Below, one piece after another: positions 9,511 to 57,359 of a stretch of DNA of 64,000 bases. The first letter of the stretch is position 1. Every line of letters begins with the position of its first letter. Below the pieces are notes generated by a model, which had not been told where the DNA came from, ran no database searches, and saw only the letters and a list, made by a program, of their open reading frames with translations. The stretch lies in NCBI GenBank assembly GCA_046484625.1, contig JAWOIO010000109.1, positions 1,842-65,841 of the forward strand, written 5' to 3'. The translations under genes were made by a program, and so were the position numbers. This DNA comes from Acidimicrobiia bacterium. Its GTDB lineage: Bacteria; Actinomycetota; Acidimicrobiia; IMCC26256; PALSA-555.

Positions 9511-9668
9511 TCCCGCACCGCTTTCCGTGACGGATCGCGCCCGCGCACCGGTTCTGGTGACGGATCGCGCCCGCGCACCGGTTCTGGTGACGGATCGCGC
9601 CGTCACGGGGGCCGGATCCGACACGAGAAGGGTGGGGAGGGCCGGATCCGTCACGAGAAGGGAGCGGC
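9511..9668. repeat. Composite tandem-repeat block: about 3.5 copies of one 30-bp unit followed by 2 copies of a second 30-bp unit with inverted complementarity
   Basis: gtgacggatcgcgcccgcgcaccggttctg is identical at 9527..9556 and 9557..9586; a partial third copy starts at 9587 and a degenerate copy lies at 9497..9526. gggccggatccg(a/t)cacgagaaggg occurs at 9609 and 9639. gtgacggatc and gatccgtcac are reverse complements. Confidence 0.85.
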
Positions 9669-22302: not shown

Positions 22303-23568
<1,266 letters not shown>

Positions 23569-24375
23569 CTAGCGCTGGTCGGCCTGGTCGGCCTGGTCGC
23601 GGATCCGGGCCGCGTAGACCGCGGCCTGGGTCCGCCGCTCCATCCCGAGCTTCGTGAGCAGGTTCGAGACGTAGTTCTTCACGGTCTTCTCGGCCAGGTG
23701 CACCTTCTCGGCGATCTGACGGTTCGTGAGCCCGTCGGCGATCAGGTCGAGGATCTTGCGCTCCTGGCTCGTGAGCCGGGCGAGGCGCTCGTCGGTCTCC
23801 GGCCCCGAGCGGAGCCGCTCGAGCACACGGGCGGTGACCGCCGGGTCGAGCAGCGACTGGCCCAGCGCGACCTGGCGGATGCCGGCCACGAGGTCCTGAC
23901 CCTTCACCTGCTTGAGCAGGTAGCCGGCGGCACCGGCCATGATCGCCTGGAACAGTGCCTCGTCGTCGGCGAACGACGTGAGGATCAGGCACTGGATCTC
24001 GGGGTGGTGGGATCGGATGTCGCGGCACACCTCGACGCCGCTGCCGTCGGGGAGTCGCACGTCGAGCACCGCCACGTCGGGCCGGGTCGGCGGGATCCGC
24101 GAGAGCGCCTCCTCGGCCGTCCCGGCCTCGCCGACCACGGTGAGGTCGCCCTCGGCCTCGAGCAGGTCGCGCAGTCCGCGCCGCACGACCTCGTGGTCGT
24201 CGACCAGGAACACCCGCACCGGCTCGCCGGTGCTCGCGGGCTCGTCGGGCGCGGATCCGGTGGTCGTGGGCTTGGGCGTCTTGGGCTTGGGCGTCTTGGG
24301 CTTGGGCGTCTTGGGCTTGGTGGTCGTGGGCTTGGGCGTCTTGGCCTTGGCTGGCACCGAAGGAGTCTTACCCAC
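23569..24375 (-). CDS. NarL/LuxR-family response regulator, DevR/DosR-like, with Lys/Pro/Thr-rich N-terminal extension
   Basis: Distal part of ORF 23569..25230. Motifs VFLVDDHEVVRRGL, RPDVAVLDVRLPDGSG, LILTS, LAEKTVKNYVSNLLTKLGMERRTQAAV. The start is uncertain: GTG at 24375 or 24357, or at the receiver-domain GTG near 24216. Confidence 0.85.
   Translation of the reverse strand: MGKTPSVPAKAKTPKPTTTKPKTPKPKTPKPKTPKPTTTGSAPDEPASTGEPVRVFLVDDHEVVRRGLRDLLEAEGDLTVVGEAGTAEEALSRIPPTRPDVAVLDVRLPDGSGVEVCRDIRSHHPEIQCLILTSFADDEALFQAIMAGAAGYLLKQVKGQDLVAGIRQVALGQSLLDPAVTARVLERLRSGPETDERLARLTSQERKILDLIADGLTNRQIAEKVHLAEKTVKNYVSNLLTKLGMERRTQAAVYAARIRDQADQADQR
24259..24351. repeat. 15-bp tandem repeat, about 6 copies, encoding (KTPKP)n on the minus strand
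   Basis: gggcttgggcgtctt is repeated from 24268 with two variant units (gggcttggtggtcgt). The minus-strand frame AAG-ACG-CCC-AAG-CCC has G or C at every third position. Confidence 0.85.
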
Positions 24376-24486
24376 GGTCGTCCTGCGATCCAGGGACCAA
24401 TGACCTTCGGCCCGTGACCCTGGACCCTTGGCGCCCGCGACGGATGCGGCGACGATCGGCACACGACAACGTCGAGGGGAGCCGCG

Positions 24487-30658: not shown

Positions 30659-30712
30659 CCGTACAGCTTGTTGTCGACGCTGGTCACGGTGGCTCCTCGG
30701 AGGTCGCAGATC

Positions 30713-30763
30713 AGTGGGCGGCAGGTGGGTGGGTGGCAGGTCCGTGGGTGGCAGGTCCGCGGA
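30713..30763. repeat. 15-bp tandem repeat, about 3 copies, in a divergent intergenic region
   Basis: ggcaggtgggtgggt / ggcaggtccgtgggt / ggcaggtccgcgga. Confidence 0.75.
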
Positions 30764-38052: not shown

Positions 38053-39192
38053 ATGCGGGTCCTCGAGGTCGCAACGCTCTACTCGGCGCCGCAGATCGGA
38101 GCGCTGCTCGGGGACCTCGGCGCCGACGTCGTCAAGGTCGAGCCGCCCGGTGGCGACCCCATGCGACACATGGGCCAGCAGCGCGACGGACGCGCCGTCG
38201 CGTGGGAGCTGGTCGCCAGGAACAAGCGGTCGGTCGTGCTCGACCTCGACCAGACGCACGGCGGATCCGAGGCCGATCGCGCGACGTTCGACGCCCTCGT
38301 GCGCGCGGCCGACGTGCTGGTCGAGAACCTCACCCCGGCCGTCCGGACGAGGTGGGAGTGCACGTACGAGCAGCTCGCCGCGCGCAACCCGCGTCTCGTC
38401 GTGGTGAGCGTCAGCTGCTACGGGCTGACCGGGCCGTATGCCGATCGACCGGGGGCCGGGACGCTCGCGGAGGCCTTCGCGGGGCTCACCCACATGACCG
38501 GTGAGCCCGACGGCCCTCCGATGCTCTCGTCGGTCGCGATCGGCGACACGGTCACGGCGTTCTGGGGCGTGATCGGCGCCCTCGCCGCGTGCTGGGGGCG
38601 CGACGCGGGGCGAAGCAGTGACGCGGAGCCACGCGGGCGACTCGTCGACGTCAGCATGGTGGAGCCCATGCTGCACGTGATGGCAGGCACGATCGCGGGA
38701 TGGGATCGTGAGGGGGCACCGCCCATCCGGAGCGGGAGTCGAGTCCCGGGTGGGGTCCCGCGCAACGTCTACCGAACTGCCGACGAACAGTACGTCGCCG
38801 TGTCGGGGACGACCGATGCCCAGGTGGCGCGTGTGCTCGGGATCCTCGGGCGAGCCGACGCGGCGTCCCGCGACCGCTTCGGCACCGCGGCGGCCCGCCG
38901 GACTTCCGGTGACGAGCTCGACGCGCTGGTCGCGGCGTGGGTCGGGGCGCGCCCGCGCGACGCCGTCGTCGCGGCGTTCGTCGAGGCGCGGGTAGCGATC
39001 TCGCCCGTCAACGACGCGCGCGATGTCCTCGGCGATCCCCAGGTTCGTGCCCGCGGCGCGGTGGTCGAGCCGGGGCCGGCCCCCGACCTCGACGCGCACC
39101 ACGACGAGGTGCTCGCGGACTGGAGCGCCGGATCAGGGAGCGCCGGATCAGGGAGCGCCGGATCAGGGACGGAGACCGACCCCCGGGAGTGA
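38053..39192 (+). CDS. Family III CoA-transferase (CaiB/BaiF)
   Basis: 379-aa ORF. Motifs MRVLEV......P..G.LL.DLGADV.KVE.P.GD and a GD..... active-site region. C-terminal (SAGSG)x3 tail. Confidence 0.85.
   Translation: MRVLEVATLYSAPQIGALLGDLGADVVKVEPPGGDPMRHMGQQRDGRAVAWELVARNKRSVVLDLDQTHGGSEADRATFDALVRAADVLVENLTPAVRTRWECTYEQLAARNPRLVVVSVSCYGLTGPYADRPGAGTLAEAFAGLTHMTGEPDGPPMLSSVAIGDTVTAFWGVIGALAACWGRDAGRSSDAEPRGRLVDVSMVEPMLHVMAGTIAGWDREGAPPIRSGSRVPGGVPRNVYRTADEQYVAVSGTTDAQVARVLGILGRADAASRDRFGTAAARRTSGDELDALVAAWVGARPRDAVVAAFVEARVAISPVNDARDVLGDPQVRARGAVVEPGPAPDLDAHHDEVLADWSAGSGSAGSGSAGSGTETDPRE
39124..39168. repeat. Perfect 15-bp tandem repeat x3
   Basis: agcgccggatcaggg occurs three times. 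It encodes (SAGSG)3 at the CoA-transferase C-terminus and contains the stop codon of the convergent SDR gene. Confidence 0.9.
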
Positions 39193-46433: not shown

Positions 46434-47090
46434 ATGGGCCTCGAGATCCGCGACCTGGCCGCCGAGGACCTCCCTGCGGCCGGAGGCGTCGCGGGGCGAG
46501 CGCTCGCGGACAGCCCGACGCTGCGGTGGGCGCTCGGCCCGGACCCGCTCGCGCGGGTCGGCGGCAGCCTCGACGTCTTCGTCGGGTTCGTGGCCGCGAT
46601 GCCACCACCGCAGCTGGGCGCCTTCCTCGGGAACCACGTCGTCGGGGTCGCAGCGGCGGCGGCGCCCGGAACCTGCATCGGCGCGATCGCGACCGACGAG
46701 ATGCGGACGCCGCCGCAGGTGATCGGACCGAACGGCGACGAGTCGCGGAACCTCCTCGTGTGGTCGCTGTTCTGCGGGCACGACCTCGAGGAGCGGCACT
46801 GGCACGTCGGCCCCGTCTCGGTCGAGCCGGGCCTCCAGGGCGCGGGAATCGGCGGACAGCTCCTCACGGCGCTGTGCGACCGGATGGACGCCGACGGCGA
46901 GGTGGCGTGGCTCGAGACGGACAAGCCCGAGAACGTCGTGTTCTATCGGCGGCACGGCTTCGAGGTCGTCCAGGAGGTGCTCGCGCCCGATCCGGCGGTG
47001 TATCAGGCGTCCGGCGATCAGGCTTCCGGCGATCAGGCGTCCGGCGACGGGCCGTTCACGACCTGGTTCATGCGGCGGGATCCCCGGTAG
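46434..47090 (+). CDS. GNAT family N-acetyltransferase
   Basis: 218-aa ORF. Motifs [12 protein letters not shown] and FYRRHGFE. Has a (QASGD)x3 insert near the C-terminus. Confidence 0.7.
47004..47048. repeat. 15-bp tandem repeat x3 inside the GNAT gene
   Basis: caggcgtccggcgat / caggcttccggcgat / caggcgtccggcgac. Confidence 0.9.
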
Positions 47091-55490: not shown

Positions 55491-57359
55491 ATGAAGCGAT
55501 CCAAGCGTCTTTCTCGAGCGTTGGTCGGTGCCGGACTGCTGGCGCTCGCGGTGCTCGTGCCCGCAACGGCCATCGCGGCGCCGAACGGCACCGCTGGCTT
55601 CCTGGGGGGATCCGAGCAGATCACCCAGTTCGATGTGCAGCTCACCATCGAGCCGAGCGGCGACCTCCTCGTGCAGGAGACGATCGACTACGACTTCGGC
55701 GTCCTCTCGAGGCGCGGCATCTTCCGCGACATCCCGGTGCGCTTCGACTACCCGAAGAAGGCCGACACCGACCGGGTGTACCCGCTCGACGTGGTGTCGG
55801 TACGCACGTCGGAGGGCACGCCGGGCCAGTACACGTTGGAGGAGTTCACGCAGAACGGGATCGGCTACGACCGGATCAAGATCGGTGACCCGGACCAGAC
55901 GATCACGGGCGAGCACCGCTACGAGATCACCTACCGGGTGCAGGGCGCACTGAACGGCTTCGACGAGCACGACGAGCTGGTGTGGAACGCGGTCGGGACG
56001 CAGTGGCCCGTGATCATCAACGACGTCACCGTCGAGCTGGTCGCGCCGGCCGGCATCACCGCGATCAACTGCGCCCAGGGCTCGTTCGGGTCGAACCTGC
56101 CGTGCGAGACCGCGTCGTTCGACCTCGACCTCGCGAGCTTTGCCCAGACCCAGCTGTTCCCGTTCCAGGGGCTGACCATCACGATCGGGTTGCCGAAGGG
56201 CGCCGTCCCGGAGCCCGAGCCGATCCTCGAGGAGCGCTGGACACCCGGCCGGGCGTTCGCCCTCAACGGCGGGACCGTCGGGGGTGCGGCCGTGATCGGG
56301 CTCGTCGGGTTCGGGGCGTTCTTCGCGGCGTTCGGCCGCAAGGCCCGCGACCGTCGGTTCAAGGGCGGCGCGGTCGACCAGACCTTCGGCGCCGAAGGCG
56401 GTGCCGACGAGCTGACGCCGGTCTTCGCCGAGAAGACCGAGACTCCGGTGGAGTTCGAGCCGCCCGACGACCTGCGGCCCGGGCAGGTCGGCACGCTCGT
56501 CGACTTCAAGGCCCACCCGCTCGACGTGACCGCCACGATCGTGGATCTCGCGGTGCGCAAGTACCTCGTCATCGAAGAGGTCGAGACGACCTCGCGATGG
56601 CTCAAGAACGACTGGAAGCTCACGAAGCTCGACAAGTCCGACGCCAAGCTCCTCGACTACGAGAAGGAGCTGCTCGCCGGACTGTTCAAGAGCGGCGACA
56701 CCGTCGAGCTGGGCGACCTGAAGCAGAAGTTCGCGGCCCGCATGGCCAAGGTGCAGAAGGCGCTCTCCGACGACGCGAAGGCCCAGGGCTGGTTCACGCG
56801 CGACCCGAACACGGCCCAGCTCTCCACCGGGTGCCTGGGCATCCTCGTGCTGCTCCTCGGGATCGGCGTCACGGTCGCGCTGGCCATGTGGACGAGCCTC
56901 GGCCTCCTCGGGATCCCGCTGGTCCTGCTCGGTCTGTTCTGGACGTTCAGCGCTCGCTGGGCCCCGGCCCGCACCGCGAAGGGGAGCGCGCTGCTCCGGC
57001 GCACGAACGGCTTCCGGCGCTTCATCGAGGAGTCGGAGAAGGAGCGGGCGCGCTTCGCGGAGCGCAAGAACCTCTTCTCGGAGTACCTGCCCTACGCGGT
57101 GGTGTTCGGCGCCACCGAGAAGTGGGCGAAGGCGTTCGCCGGCCTCGACGGTGAGCCGCCCGACACCAGCTACTGGTACCGGTCGAACGTGCCCTTCCAG
57201 TACGTCGCGTTCTCGCACGCGATGGACGGGTTCGCGACGACCACCGCGGGGACGCTGACCTCGACGCCACCGTCGACCTCGGGCTCGAGTGGCTTCTCCG
57301 GTGGTGGCGGTGGCTCCTCCGGCGGTGGTGGCGGAGGCGGAGGCGGGGGCTCCTGGTGA
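55491..57359 (+). CDS. DUF2207-like membrane protein with Gly-rich C-terminus
   Basis: 622-aa ORF. Signal peptide, extracellular N-terminal domain, TM helices, and a C-terminal GFSGGGGGSSGGGGGGGGGSW tail. Confidence 0.75.
   Translation: MKRSKRLSRALVGAGLLALAVLVPATAIAAPNGTAGFLGGSEQITQFDVQLTIEPSGDLLVQETIDYDFGVLSRRGIFRDIPVRFDYPKKADTDRVYPLDVVSVRTSEGTPGQYTLEEFTQNGIGYDRIKIGDPDQTITGEHRYEITYRVQGALNGFDEHDELVWNAVGTQWPVIINDVTVELVAPAGITAINCAQGSFGSNLPCETASFDLDLASFAQTQLFPFQGLTITIGLPKGAVPEPEPILEERWTPGRAFALNGGTVGGAAVIGLVGFGAFFAAFGRKARDRRFKGGAVDQTFGAEGGADELTPVFAEKTETPVEFEPPDDLRPGQVGTLVDFKAHPLDVTATIVDLAVRKYLVIEEVETTSRWLKNDWKLTKLDKSDAKLLDYEKELLAGLFKSGDTVELGDLKQKFAARMAKVQKALSDDAKAQGWFTRDPNTAQLSTGCLGILVLLLGIGVTVALAMWTSLGLLGIPLVLLGLFWTFSARWAPARTAKGSALLRRTNGFRRFIEESEKERARFAERKNLFSEYLPYAVVFGATEKWAKAFAGLDGEPPDTSYWYRSNVPFQYVAFSHAMDGFATTTAGTLTSTPPSTSGSSGFSGGGGGSSGGGGGGGGGGSW

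Follow-up and report, generated by a model that had tools for sequence, protein, structure and literature searches.

Where does a response regulator begin when a tandem repeat runs in frame into its receiver domain, and what would such a repeat do for the protein? This question is raised by a DevR/DosR-type regulator gene from an uncultured Acidimicrobiia bacterium, located on a 64,000-nucleotide stretch of contig JAWOIO010000109.1 that was analysed as a whole (the window). Regulator, repeat, tail and promoter elements all lie on the minus strand, and a divergent gene for a 209-residue protein lies on the plus strand (Table 1). The account that we somewhat favour as a whole is that of a leaderless gene whose 46-residue N-terminal tail was expanded in frame by the repeat and would act electrostatically on DNA.

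A 15-bp repeat in the regulator frame

The regulator matched Pfam models for both of its domains (PF00072, Response_reg, 1.2e-26; PF00196, GerE, 1.7e-18). Its best structural match was DevR of Mycobacterium tuberculosis (3C3W, E=1.8e-77), with residues 47-254 of the query aligned to residues 2-209 of DevR, and the next-best match was VraR at 1.5e-43. The numbering is offset by 45 from that of DevR, the phospho-acceptor Asp99 being DevR Asp54, and Asp53/54, Asp99, Thr127 and Lys149 were invariant across 30 sequences. No NCBIfam equivalog reached its cut-off (the best was MadR with 191 bits against a cut-off of 300), and no DevR-specific model was found among the matches listed in that comparison. 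We concluded that the gene, as judged by these matches, is a NarL-family response regulator of the DevR/DosR type, as an earlier note made from the DNA letters had proposed.

Tandem Repeats Finder reported 5.9 copies of a 15-bp unit with 89% matches. The earlier note had counted about six copies, and its translation of them was exactly as we obtained it. Four units are perfect copies of AAGACGCCCAAGCCC (24342-24328, 24312-24298, 24297-24283 and 24282-24268); the chance expectation was 0.12 matches, and 100 shuffles never gave as many as four. From 24357 the codons are GTG CCA GCC AAG GCC, AAG ACG CCC AAG CCC and ACG ACC ACC AAG CCC, followed by three consecutive copies of AAG ACG CCC AAG CCC and then by ACG ACC ACC GGA TCC. 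The repeat is in frame with the regulator, and the protein reads PAKAK-TPKP-TTTKP-(KTPKP)3-TTTGSAPDEPASTGEP and then VRVFLVDD, a pattern that can be summarised as PAKAK(TPKPx)n...GSAPDEPASTGEP. In the alignment of upstream DNA, compared with L001, the nearest relative that has a tail, the repeat amounts to 81 inserted nt between AK.. and ..TGS. The expansion is very recent, because the copies are perfect and a 24-mer is duplicated.

The G+C content at third codon positions (GC3) of the 46-codon stretch was 0.96 in the regulator frame and equalled that of the core of the regulator (0.96); the two remaining sense frames gave 0.49 and 0.71. The codon endings in G or C from which the earlier note had argued for translation were thus found as described. 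The stretch makes use of the preferred codons AAG, ACG/ACC and CCC, and both the high GC3 and the preferred codons continue through the non-repeat parts of the tail. The regulator frame stays open for 369 codons upstream, which by itself is meaningless because this DNA is 72% G+C, in a window of about 70%. GC3 also reached 0.92 in one antisense frame, which is a caveat to the codon argument; that frame (GLGVL repeats) was rejected as a gene, being antisense to the conserved receiver domain. In the 18 nt between GTG 24375 and GTG 24357 the GC3 was only 0.5, and the 129 nt of intergenic DNA had no periodicity and a GC3 of 0.63-0.74 in all frames. Because GC3 drops to 0.5 upstream of 24357, the coding signal begins there and not at 24375.

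The start of translation

The DNA upstream of the regulator was aligned with that of seven relatives, whose cores are 83-96% identical. All seven share the block TCGGYMAGACTC, followed by 5 nt and then ATG, and the window has GTG 24357 in the ATG column. In each relative the upstream ATG shares the frame of the regulator, with tails of 11, 18, 21, 26 or 27 codons. In many relatives the first receiver residue is Ile (ATC), in the column of the internal GTG 24219 of the window; because ATC cannot initiate, an internal start is impossible in those relatives and only the upstream ATG can serve. The last 14 residues of the tail are conserved as protein with the homologues P0001 and P0003 (TGSxPD[DE]..STGEP). 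Most of the nearest homologues have ATG-initiated N-terminal tails, for example P0001 with MHAKRRSTGSSPDDPTSTGEP-VRVF. In mycobacteria, leaderless translation requires an ATG or GTG at the 5' terminus of the mRNA, and such a codon suffices (PMC4633059). Taken together, the homologous start, the promoter described below and the conserved end of the tail make it likely that the tail is translated, probably from GTG 24357.

The earlier note had placed the start at GTG 24375, giving an extension of 52 residues; translation of the extension is favoured by our comparison, and the length is probably 46 residues. Initiation at GTG 24375 could draw on AGGA (24384-24381), 5 nt upstream of the codon, as a ribosome-binding site, and 38 nt separate the codon from the distal DosR-like box upstream. 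The same column, however, is GTC in 7/7 close relatives and also in a same-species strain variant, L092 (run DRR824897), in which GTG 24357 is kept. The conserved -10-like hexamer lies downstream of the codon, which would therefore be off the transcript, the six extra codons show the low GC3 of 0.5, and no TANNNT-like hexamer precedes the codon. We consider a start at GTG 24375 most improbable, and the six codons VGKTPS, which make up the 18 nt upstream of 24357, are by this comparison promoter DNA.

The sole public record of the protein, MFO7590574.1, has 216 residues and starts VRVF, and thus lacks the repeat; an exact look-up of the 262-residue and 268-residue forms in the protein collection returned neither. 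If initiation took place only at the internal GTG 24219 or at 24213, the repeat would be an untranslated 5' leader, and the change from ATG to GTG would have killed the ancestral leaderless start and freed the region for repeats. This alternative is kept alive by the fact that the ATG-to-GTG change is unique to this lineage. A weak Shine-Dalgarno-like GGCGAG precedes the internal GTGs by 3 to 9 nt, and the would-be leader is nearly free of structure, which would both suit such a start. GGCGAG, however, is plain Gly-Glu codons and is absent from the other relatives, and a leader would account neither for the GC3 of 0.96 and the preferred codons in the non-repeat parts nor for the segment TGSAPDEPASTGEP, which is conserved as protein with the relatives in an intact frame. 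Moreover, a 5'-terminal GTG suffices in mycobacteria (PMC4633059). An untranslated repeat is in our judgement unlikely.

Several homologues (P0006, P0013, P0046, P0062 and P0097) are annotated as starting VRVF, like the record of the window protein. In the locus L004 (3919-4000), however, an in-frame ATG lies 27 codons upstream, preceded by the same conserved hexamer, here CAGACT. Gene callers may therefore be cutting off N-termini systematically across the clade. The public record and several of the homologue gene calls probably lack the true N-terminus, leaderless starts apparently being missed, and the geometry of box, -10 hexamer and RTG would offer a simple rule for correction.

Promoter geometry

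The arrangement of nAGACT, 6 nt and ATG was found by alignment and motif scan to be conserved in L001, L085, L086/87, L088 and L089, with 8 nt in L004; the second base of the hexamer is A and the sixth is T. With 6 nt between hexamer and start codon, a Shine-Dalgarno site could not be accommodated. Further upstream, two 14-mers resemble the Dev-box (GGGACnnnnGTCCC-like) with 2 mismatches each and are conserved in relatives; they are candidate sites. The distal one has 2 mismatches to GGGACNNNNGTCCC, and a DosR-box-like site lies 35 nt upstream of the start in most of the seven relatives. DevR promoters typically have a proximal DevR box overlapping their -35 element (PMC3029386). The spacing of box, hexamer and start is, on this comparison, the geometry of actinobacterial leaderless mRNA, and the positions of the boxes near -42.5 and -63.5 suggest autoregulation. 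As both boxes are in the 129-bp intergenic region, the divergent 209-residue gene is possibly co-regulated as well.

In distant orthologues (Herbidospora, Planotetraspora, Microbispora, Nonomuraea and Acrocarpospora) the box is followed by a gap of 35-37 nt and ATG, with a TANNNT hexamer 6-7 nt before an ATG that directly abuts the receiver domain. Because these orthologues share the spacing and have no tail, the promoter-to-start architecture appears to be ancient and the tail an insertion after the start codon.

In addition, TANNNT or GAGACT was seen 6-7 nt before ATG or GTG at twelve DevR-type orthologue loci from Streptomyces, Herbidospora, Nonomuraea, Microbispora and others (L012, L017, L019, L025, L038, L042, L044, L049, L057, L059, L062 and L069). 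Many of these loci have a Dev box 35-37 nt upstream, and the sequence concerned is about 50 nt upstream of position ~3000 (~2665 in L057, ~602 in L069). Leaderless, autoregulated expression seems to be an ancient trait of the DevR-type orthologue group.

The tail among homologues

The tail of the window protein contains 10 Lys, 13 Pro and 11 Thr and has a net charge of +7. In an AlphaFold2 model built from a 30-sequence alignment, residues 1-46 had a predicted local distance difference test score (pLDDT) of 44-57 and no secondary structure, and the receiver-helix-turn-helix fold was confident. The tail is thus predicted to be intrinsically disordered.

Tail composition was compared for 109 of the 120 best homologue representatives. 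The called tails of the homologues, obvious over-calls aside, have 0-40 residues with a net charge of -5 to +1 and 0-2 Lys. The tails of the seven close relatives have 11-27 residues, are acidic or neutral and are unrelated in sequence to the K/T/P repeat; in P0006 a core 96% identical to that of the window is joined to an unrelated tail. Judged by these alignments, the tails of the clade change much more rapidly in evolution than the core does.

A basic K/T/P tail was found in no other family member among about 240 homologue representatives or 84 loci, which bears out the remark in the earlier note that such a tail is unusual on a regulator of this type. When the tail was searched together with the N-terminus of the receiver, no regulator with a K/T/P tail was returned, and the high-coverage matches were over-extended gene calls. 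When the tail was used by itself as phmmer query, 1.84 billion representatives yielded a single, irrelevant match, a protein with PETPK repeats.

Comparison with known systems

With DevR/DosR of M. tuberculosis (Rv3133c; 3C3W, 1ZLK) the window protein aligns end to end over receiver and GerE-type helix-turn-helix domain. The equivalents of Asp54, Thr82 and Lys104 are conserved, the recognition segment is identical, the partner is likewise a GAF-containing HisKA_3 kinase, and candidate boxes resembling GGGAC-N4-GTCCC would overlap the -35 region of the gene's own promoter. DevR, however, starts M-VKVFLVDD and is tail-less, whereas the window protein has 46 additional basic residues that are predicted to be disordered. 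The window kinase has one detected GAF domain, and the window gene would be leaderless and autoregulated from its own promoter.

The closest regulators are those of other Acidimicrobiia (P0001, P0003-P0005, P0010-P0020 and others). They share with the window the position of the start, the promoter and disordered, low-complexity tails, and the last 14 tail residues are common to the window, P0001 and P0003. They differ in having tails of 11-38 residues with a net charge of -5 to +1 and 0-2 Lys, compared with 46 residues, +7 and 10 Lys in the window. Leaderless actinobacterial genes in general have the same -10 hexamer (A2, T6) 6 nt before RTG and no Shine-Dalgarno site, an arrangement common to orthologues across Actinobacteria; in the window and its relatives the hexamer opens with A or C and not with T.

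In histones H1 and H5 of eukaryotes, S/TPKK motifs reiterate a Thr-Pro-Lys core in a basic disordered tail. The window tail repeats the same core, but its motif is TPKP(K) and not (S/T)PKK, and the phmmer search with the tail indicated that the two are not homologous. HupB, an actinobacterial nucleoid protein, resembles H1 (PMC5676037).

In actinobacteria, lysine repeats (TopA C-terminal domain, HupS/HupB, Ku, HrdB, FtsK) are over-represented among proteins that bind DNA, whose stable binding depends on them, and those in the tails of TopA and HupB confer DNA binding and add affinity and processivity (PMC5714199; PMC5676037). The published motifs, K1-2(A/T/N)3-5 (PMC5714199) and PAKK/KAAK (PMC5676037), are mostly C-terminal and conserved across genera. 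The window tail is likewise a low-complexity, disordered tail rich in Lys, Ala, Thr and Pro on a DNA-binding protein of a high-G+C bacterium, and it opens with PAKAK, the sole part resembling PAKK/KAAK. Its lysines, however, are separated by 1-2 residues (once by 4) with Pro as the main spacer, and it is N-terminal, sits on a response regulator, occurs in one lineage only and arose from a very recent repeat expansion. It resembles the DNA-binding tails of HU/HupB in composition only.

Origin and possible effect of the tail

In the account that we favour, transcription would start at the G of GTG 24357, as we infer from AAGACT 6 nt upstream, which together with the DosR-box-like sites would drive it. 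The regulator gene would be autoregulated through these boxes, and the 5'-terminal GTG of the leaderless mRNA would serve as start codon. The clade, on this view, always has an N-terminal tail, hypervariable in sequence and length. In this lineage replication slippage would recently have lengthened the tail by 81 nt through in-frame copies of the 15-bp unit, and the charge would have been reversed to strongly basic. The regulator would thereby have acquired a polycationic, flexible arm attached where the first strand of the receiver begins. We infer that a proline-stiffened polycation on a dimeric helix-turn-helix protein would add salt-sensitive, sequence-independent affinity for DNA, as lysine-repeat tails do. 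The most likely effect of the tail should accordingly be physico-chemical, namely extra non-specific electrostatic affinity for DNA.

Several points weigh against this account. The start and the translation of the tail are argued from sequence, the GTG start stands alone among relatives that all have ATG, and leaderless GTG initiation was shown in mycobacteria and not in Acidimicrobiia (PMC4633059). The NCBI pipeline picked the internal GTG 24219, and a generic sigma-70 scan, which is not tuned to high-G+C actinobacterial promoters, found no promoter at the locus. Since the tails of the relatives are acidic, a basic tail is without precedent in the family, and it fails the strict K1-2(A/T/N)3-5 and PAKK/KAAK definitions. 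A 15-bp unit keeps the frame automatically, so that frame keeping by the repeat itself is weak evidence, and the perfect copies are too young for any signal of selection.

A translated tail might also be a neutral passenger, one of many recent in-frame slippage expansions tolerated in disordered termini. Elsewhere in the window, several tandem repeats whose periods are divisible by three sit close to the termini of high-GC3 frames. In the regulator itself a 9-bp repeat encodes the C-terminal DQADQADQ, and a 16-bp repeat lies between the regulator and the kinase gene. The hypervariable tails of the relatives, the unrelated tail on the nearly identical core of P0006, the four perfect units as a mark of very recent expansion and the lack of such a tail in every other homologue searched all fit this explanation. 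On the other side, ten lysines on a DNA-binding protein would be expected to bind DNA electrostatically, selected or not, and the variant was present in at least two further samples and is not a single-read oddity. As a complete account the neutral passenger is possible, at clearly less than even chance; on the narrower question of whether the tail is adaptive or nearly neutral, we ranked the neutral reading as equally serious.

A bolder form of the favoured account is that a DNA-binding tail like those of H1 or the lysine-repeat proteins was born de novo by minisatellite expansion in one Acidimicrobiia lineage, turning an ancestrally acidic tail basic, and gives the regulator non-specific DNA affinity independent of phosphorylation. 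We put this forward tentatively and regard it as rather doubtful. If true, it would entail altered search kinetics, occupancy or nucleoid association, and it would be a snapshot of how the lysine-repeat tails of actinobacteria originate.

For evolution, the locus suggests that repeat slippage can turn an acidic, disordered regulator tail strongly basic in a single step, a plausible route of origin for the lysine-repeat tails common on actinobacterial DNA-binding proteins. If the tail adds non-specific DNA affinity, association with DNA would be partly decoupled from phosphorylation in a two-component regulator. The understanding of DosR-type systems is unchanged and the significance is modest, mainly a correction of annotation and an example of a possible de novo basic tail.

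Same-species contigs, copy number and mRNA

With the 209-residue neighbour protein as query, two same-species contigs were found. L092 (1-60; Logan DRR824897) ends inside the array and L093 (1-25; Logan SRR34723213) at its edge, which indicates that short-read assemblers break at the 15-bp array. Apart from the GTC at 24375, L092 differs from the window by CCC for GCC (Ala to Pro) at tail codon 5. Same-species contigs found via a CBS-domain protein were too short for the repeat, and the kinase protein as a route to other samples gave no record. The species is contained in the runs DRR824897, SRR34723213, SRR34723208, SRR34723211, SRR21460062, SRR21460065 and SRR19019139. The exact two-unit 30-mer of the repeat had 0 matches in a metagenome contig collection that also lacks the known relative L085, which makes this result uninformative; the conserved promoter 20-mer had in the same collection only two chance matches, in unrelated low-G+C contigs.

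As the window belongs to a metagenome-assembled genome and the contigs break at the array, the copy number or the repeat itself could have been distorted by assembly. The 88-bp array is, however, shorter than typical reads, and the independent sample L092 reproduces its start (PAKPKTPKPTT...). We consider an assembly artefact very unlikely. Because the unit is 15 bp long and the repeat lies downstream of the promoter elements, its changes cannot switch the frame or the promoter spacing; a change in copy number, which the earlier note had thought possible, could alter the length and charge of the tail and would not switch the gene off.

The 138 nt of tail mRNA consist of C64, A37, G35 and U2. 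The first 90 nt had a folding energy of -9.0 kcal/mol, compared with -37.3 +/- 6.0 in windows taken from the coding sequence of the same genes, and the first 45 nt were weakly folded in 5/7 relatives too. The whole stretch folds no better than shuffles (z=+0.6), and an Rfam search of the tail-coding leader gave nothing credible. Martin-Farmer and Janssen reportedly found in 1999 that CA-rich downstream sequences enhance leaderless translation in E. coli. An unstructured 5' end might favour leaderless initiation; the trend is modest, follows from composition and is held to be a by-product.

Table 1. Positions of the regulator gene, its upstream elements and the neighbouring genes in the window.
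Feature	Position	Strand	Basis or remark
Proposed full coding sequence, DevR/DosR-type response regulator, 262 codons + stop	23569..24357	-	Putative leaderless start GTG 24357..24355
N-terminal tail, 46 codons, (M)PAKAKTPKPTTTKPKTPKPKTPKPKTPKPTTTGSAPDEPASTGEP	24220..24357	-	GC3, composition, predicted disorder
15-bp tandem repeat	24263..24350	-	Codon units KTPKP / TTTKP / KTPKP x3 / TTT(GS)
Receiver domain	23878..24213	-	Pfam, DevR alignment, active-site conservation
GerE/LuxR-type helix-turn-helix DNA-binding domain	23611..23778	-	LAEKTVKNYVS segment identical to DevR
Internal GTG, start in the public annotation (216 residues, MFO7590574.1)	24217..24219	-	ATC in many relatives
GTG, start proposed in the earlier note	24373..24375	-	Probably not a start: GTC elsewhere, upstream of the -10-like hexamer
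-10-like hexamer AAGACT	24364..24369	-	-12..-7 relative to GTG 24357; putative, from sequence
Proximal DosR-box-like 14-mer AGGTCATTGGTCCC	24393..24406	-	35 nt upstream of GTG 24357, centre ~-42.5
Distal DosR-box-like 14-mer GGGTCCAGGGTCAC	24414..24427	-	21 bp upstream of the proximal box, centre ~-63.5
Cognate histidine kinase, GAF (GAF_2), HisKA_3, HATPase_c	22303..23481	-	Downstream, same operon
Divergent conserved gene, 209 residues	24487..25116	+	Shares the 129-bp intergenic region with the regulator

Neighbouring genes and other repeats

The order of regulator and kinase gene is kept in the relatives. The 209-residue gene is divergent from the regulator in every close relative, and no Pfam or NCBIfam model matched it.

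The regulator has recent in-frame repeats at both ends, the one at the C-terminus being a 9-bp tandem repeat of 2.8 copies (23575-23599, minus strand) that encodes ...RDQADQADQR. The spacer between the regulator stop (23569) and the kinase start (23481) is filled for the most part by 2.3-3.1 copies of the 16-bp tandem repeat GAGGACCAGCGGGTGT (23522-23568), which fits non-coding DNA because its period is not a multiple of 3. Further tandem repeats of the window, with periods of 15, 21 or 30 bp, were found at 39122-39169, 47002-47047, 57289-57328, 30702-30759 and 9527-9601, most of them close to a terminus of a long frame with high GC3 (SAGSG x3 and DQASG x3 are examples). This pattern points to a genome in which protein termini are easily extended in frame by slippage.

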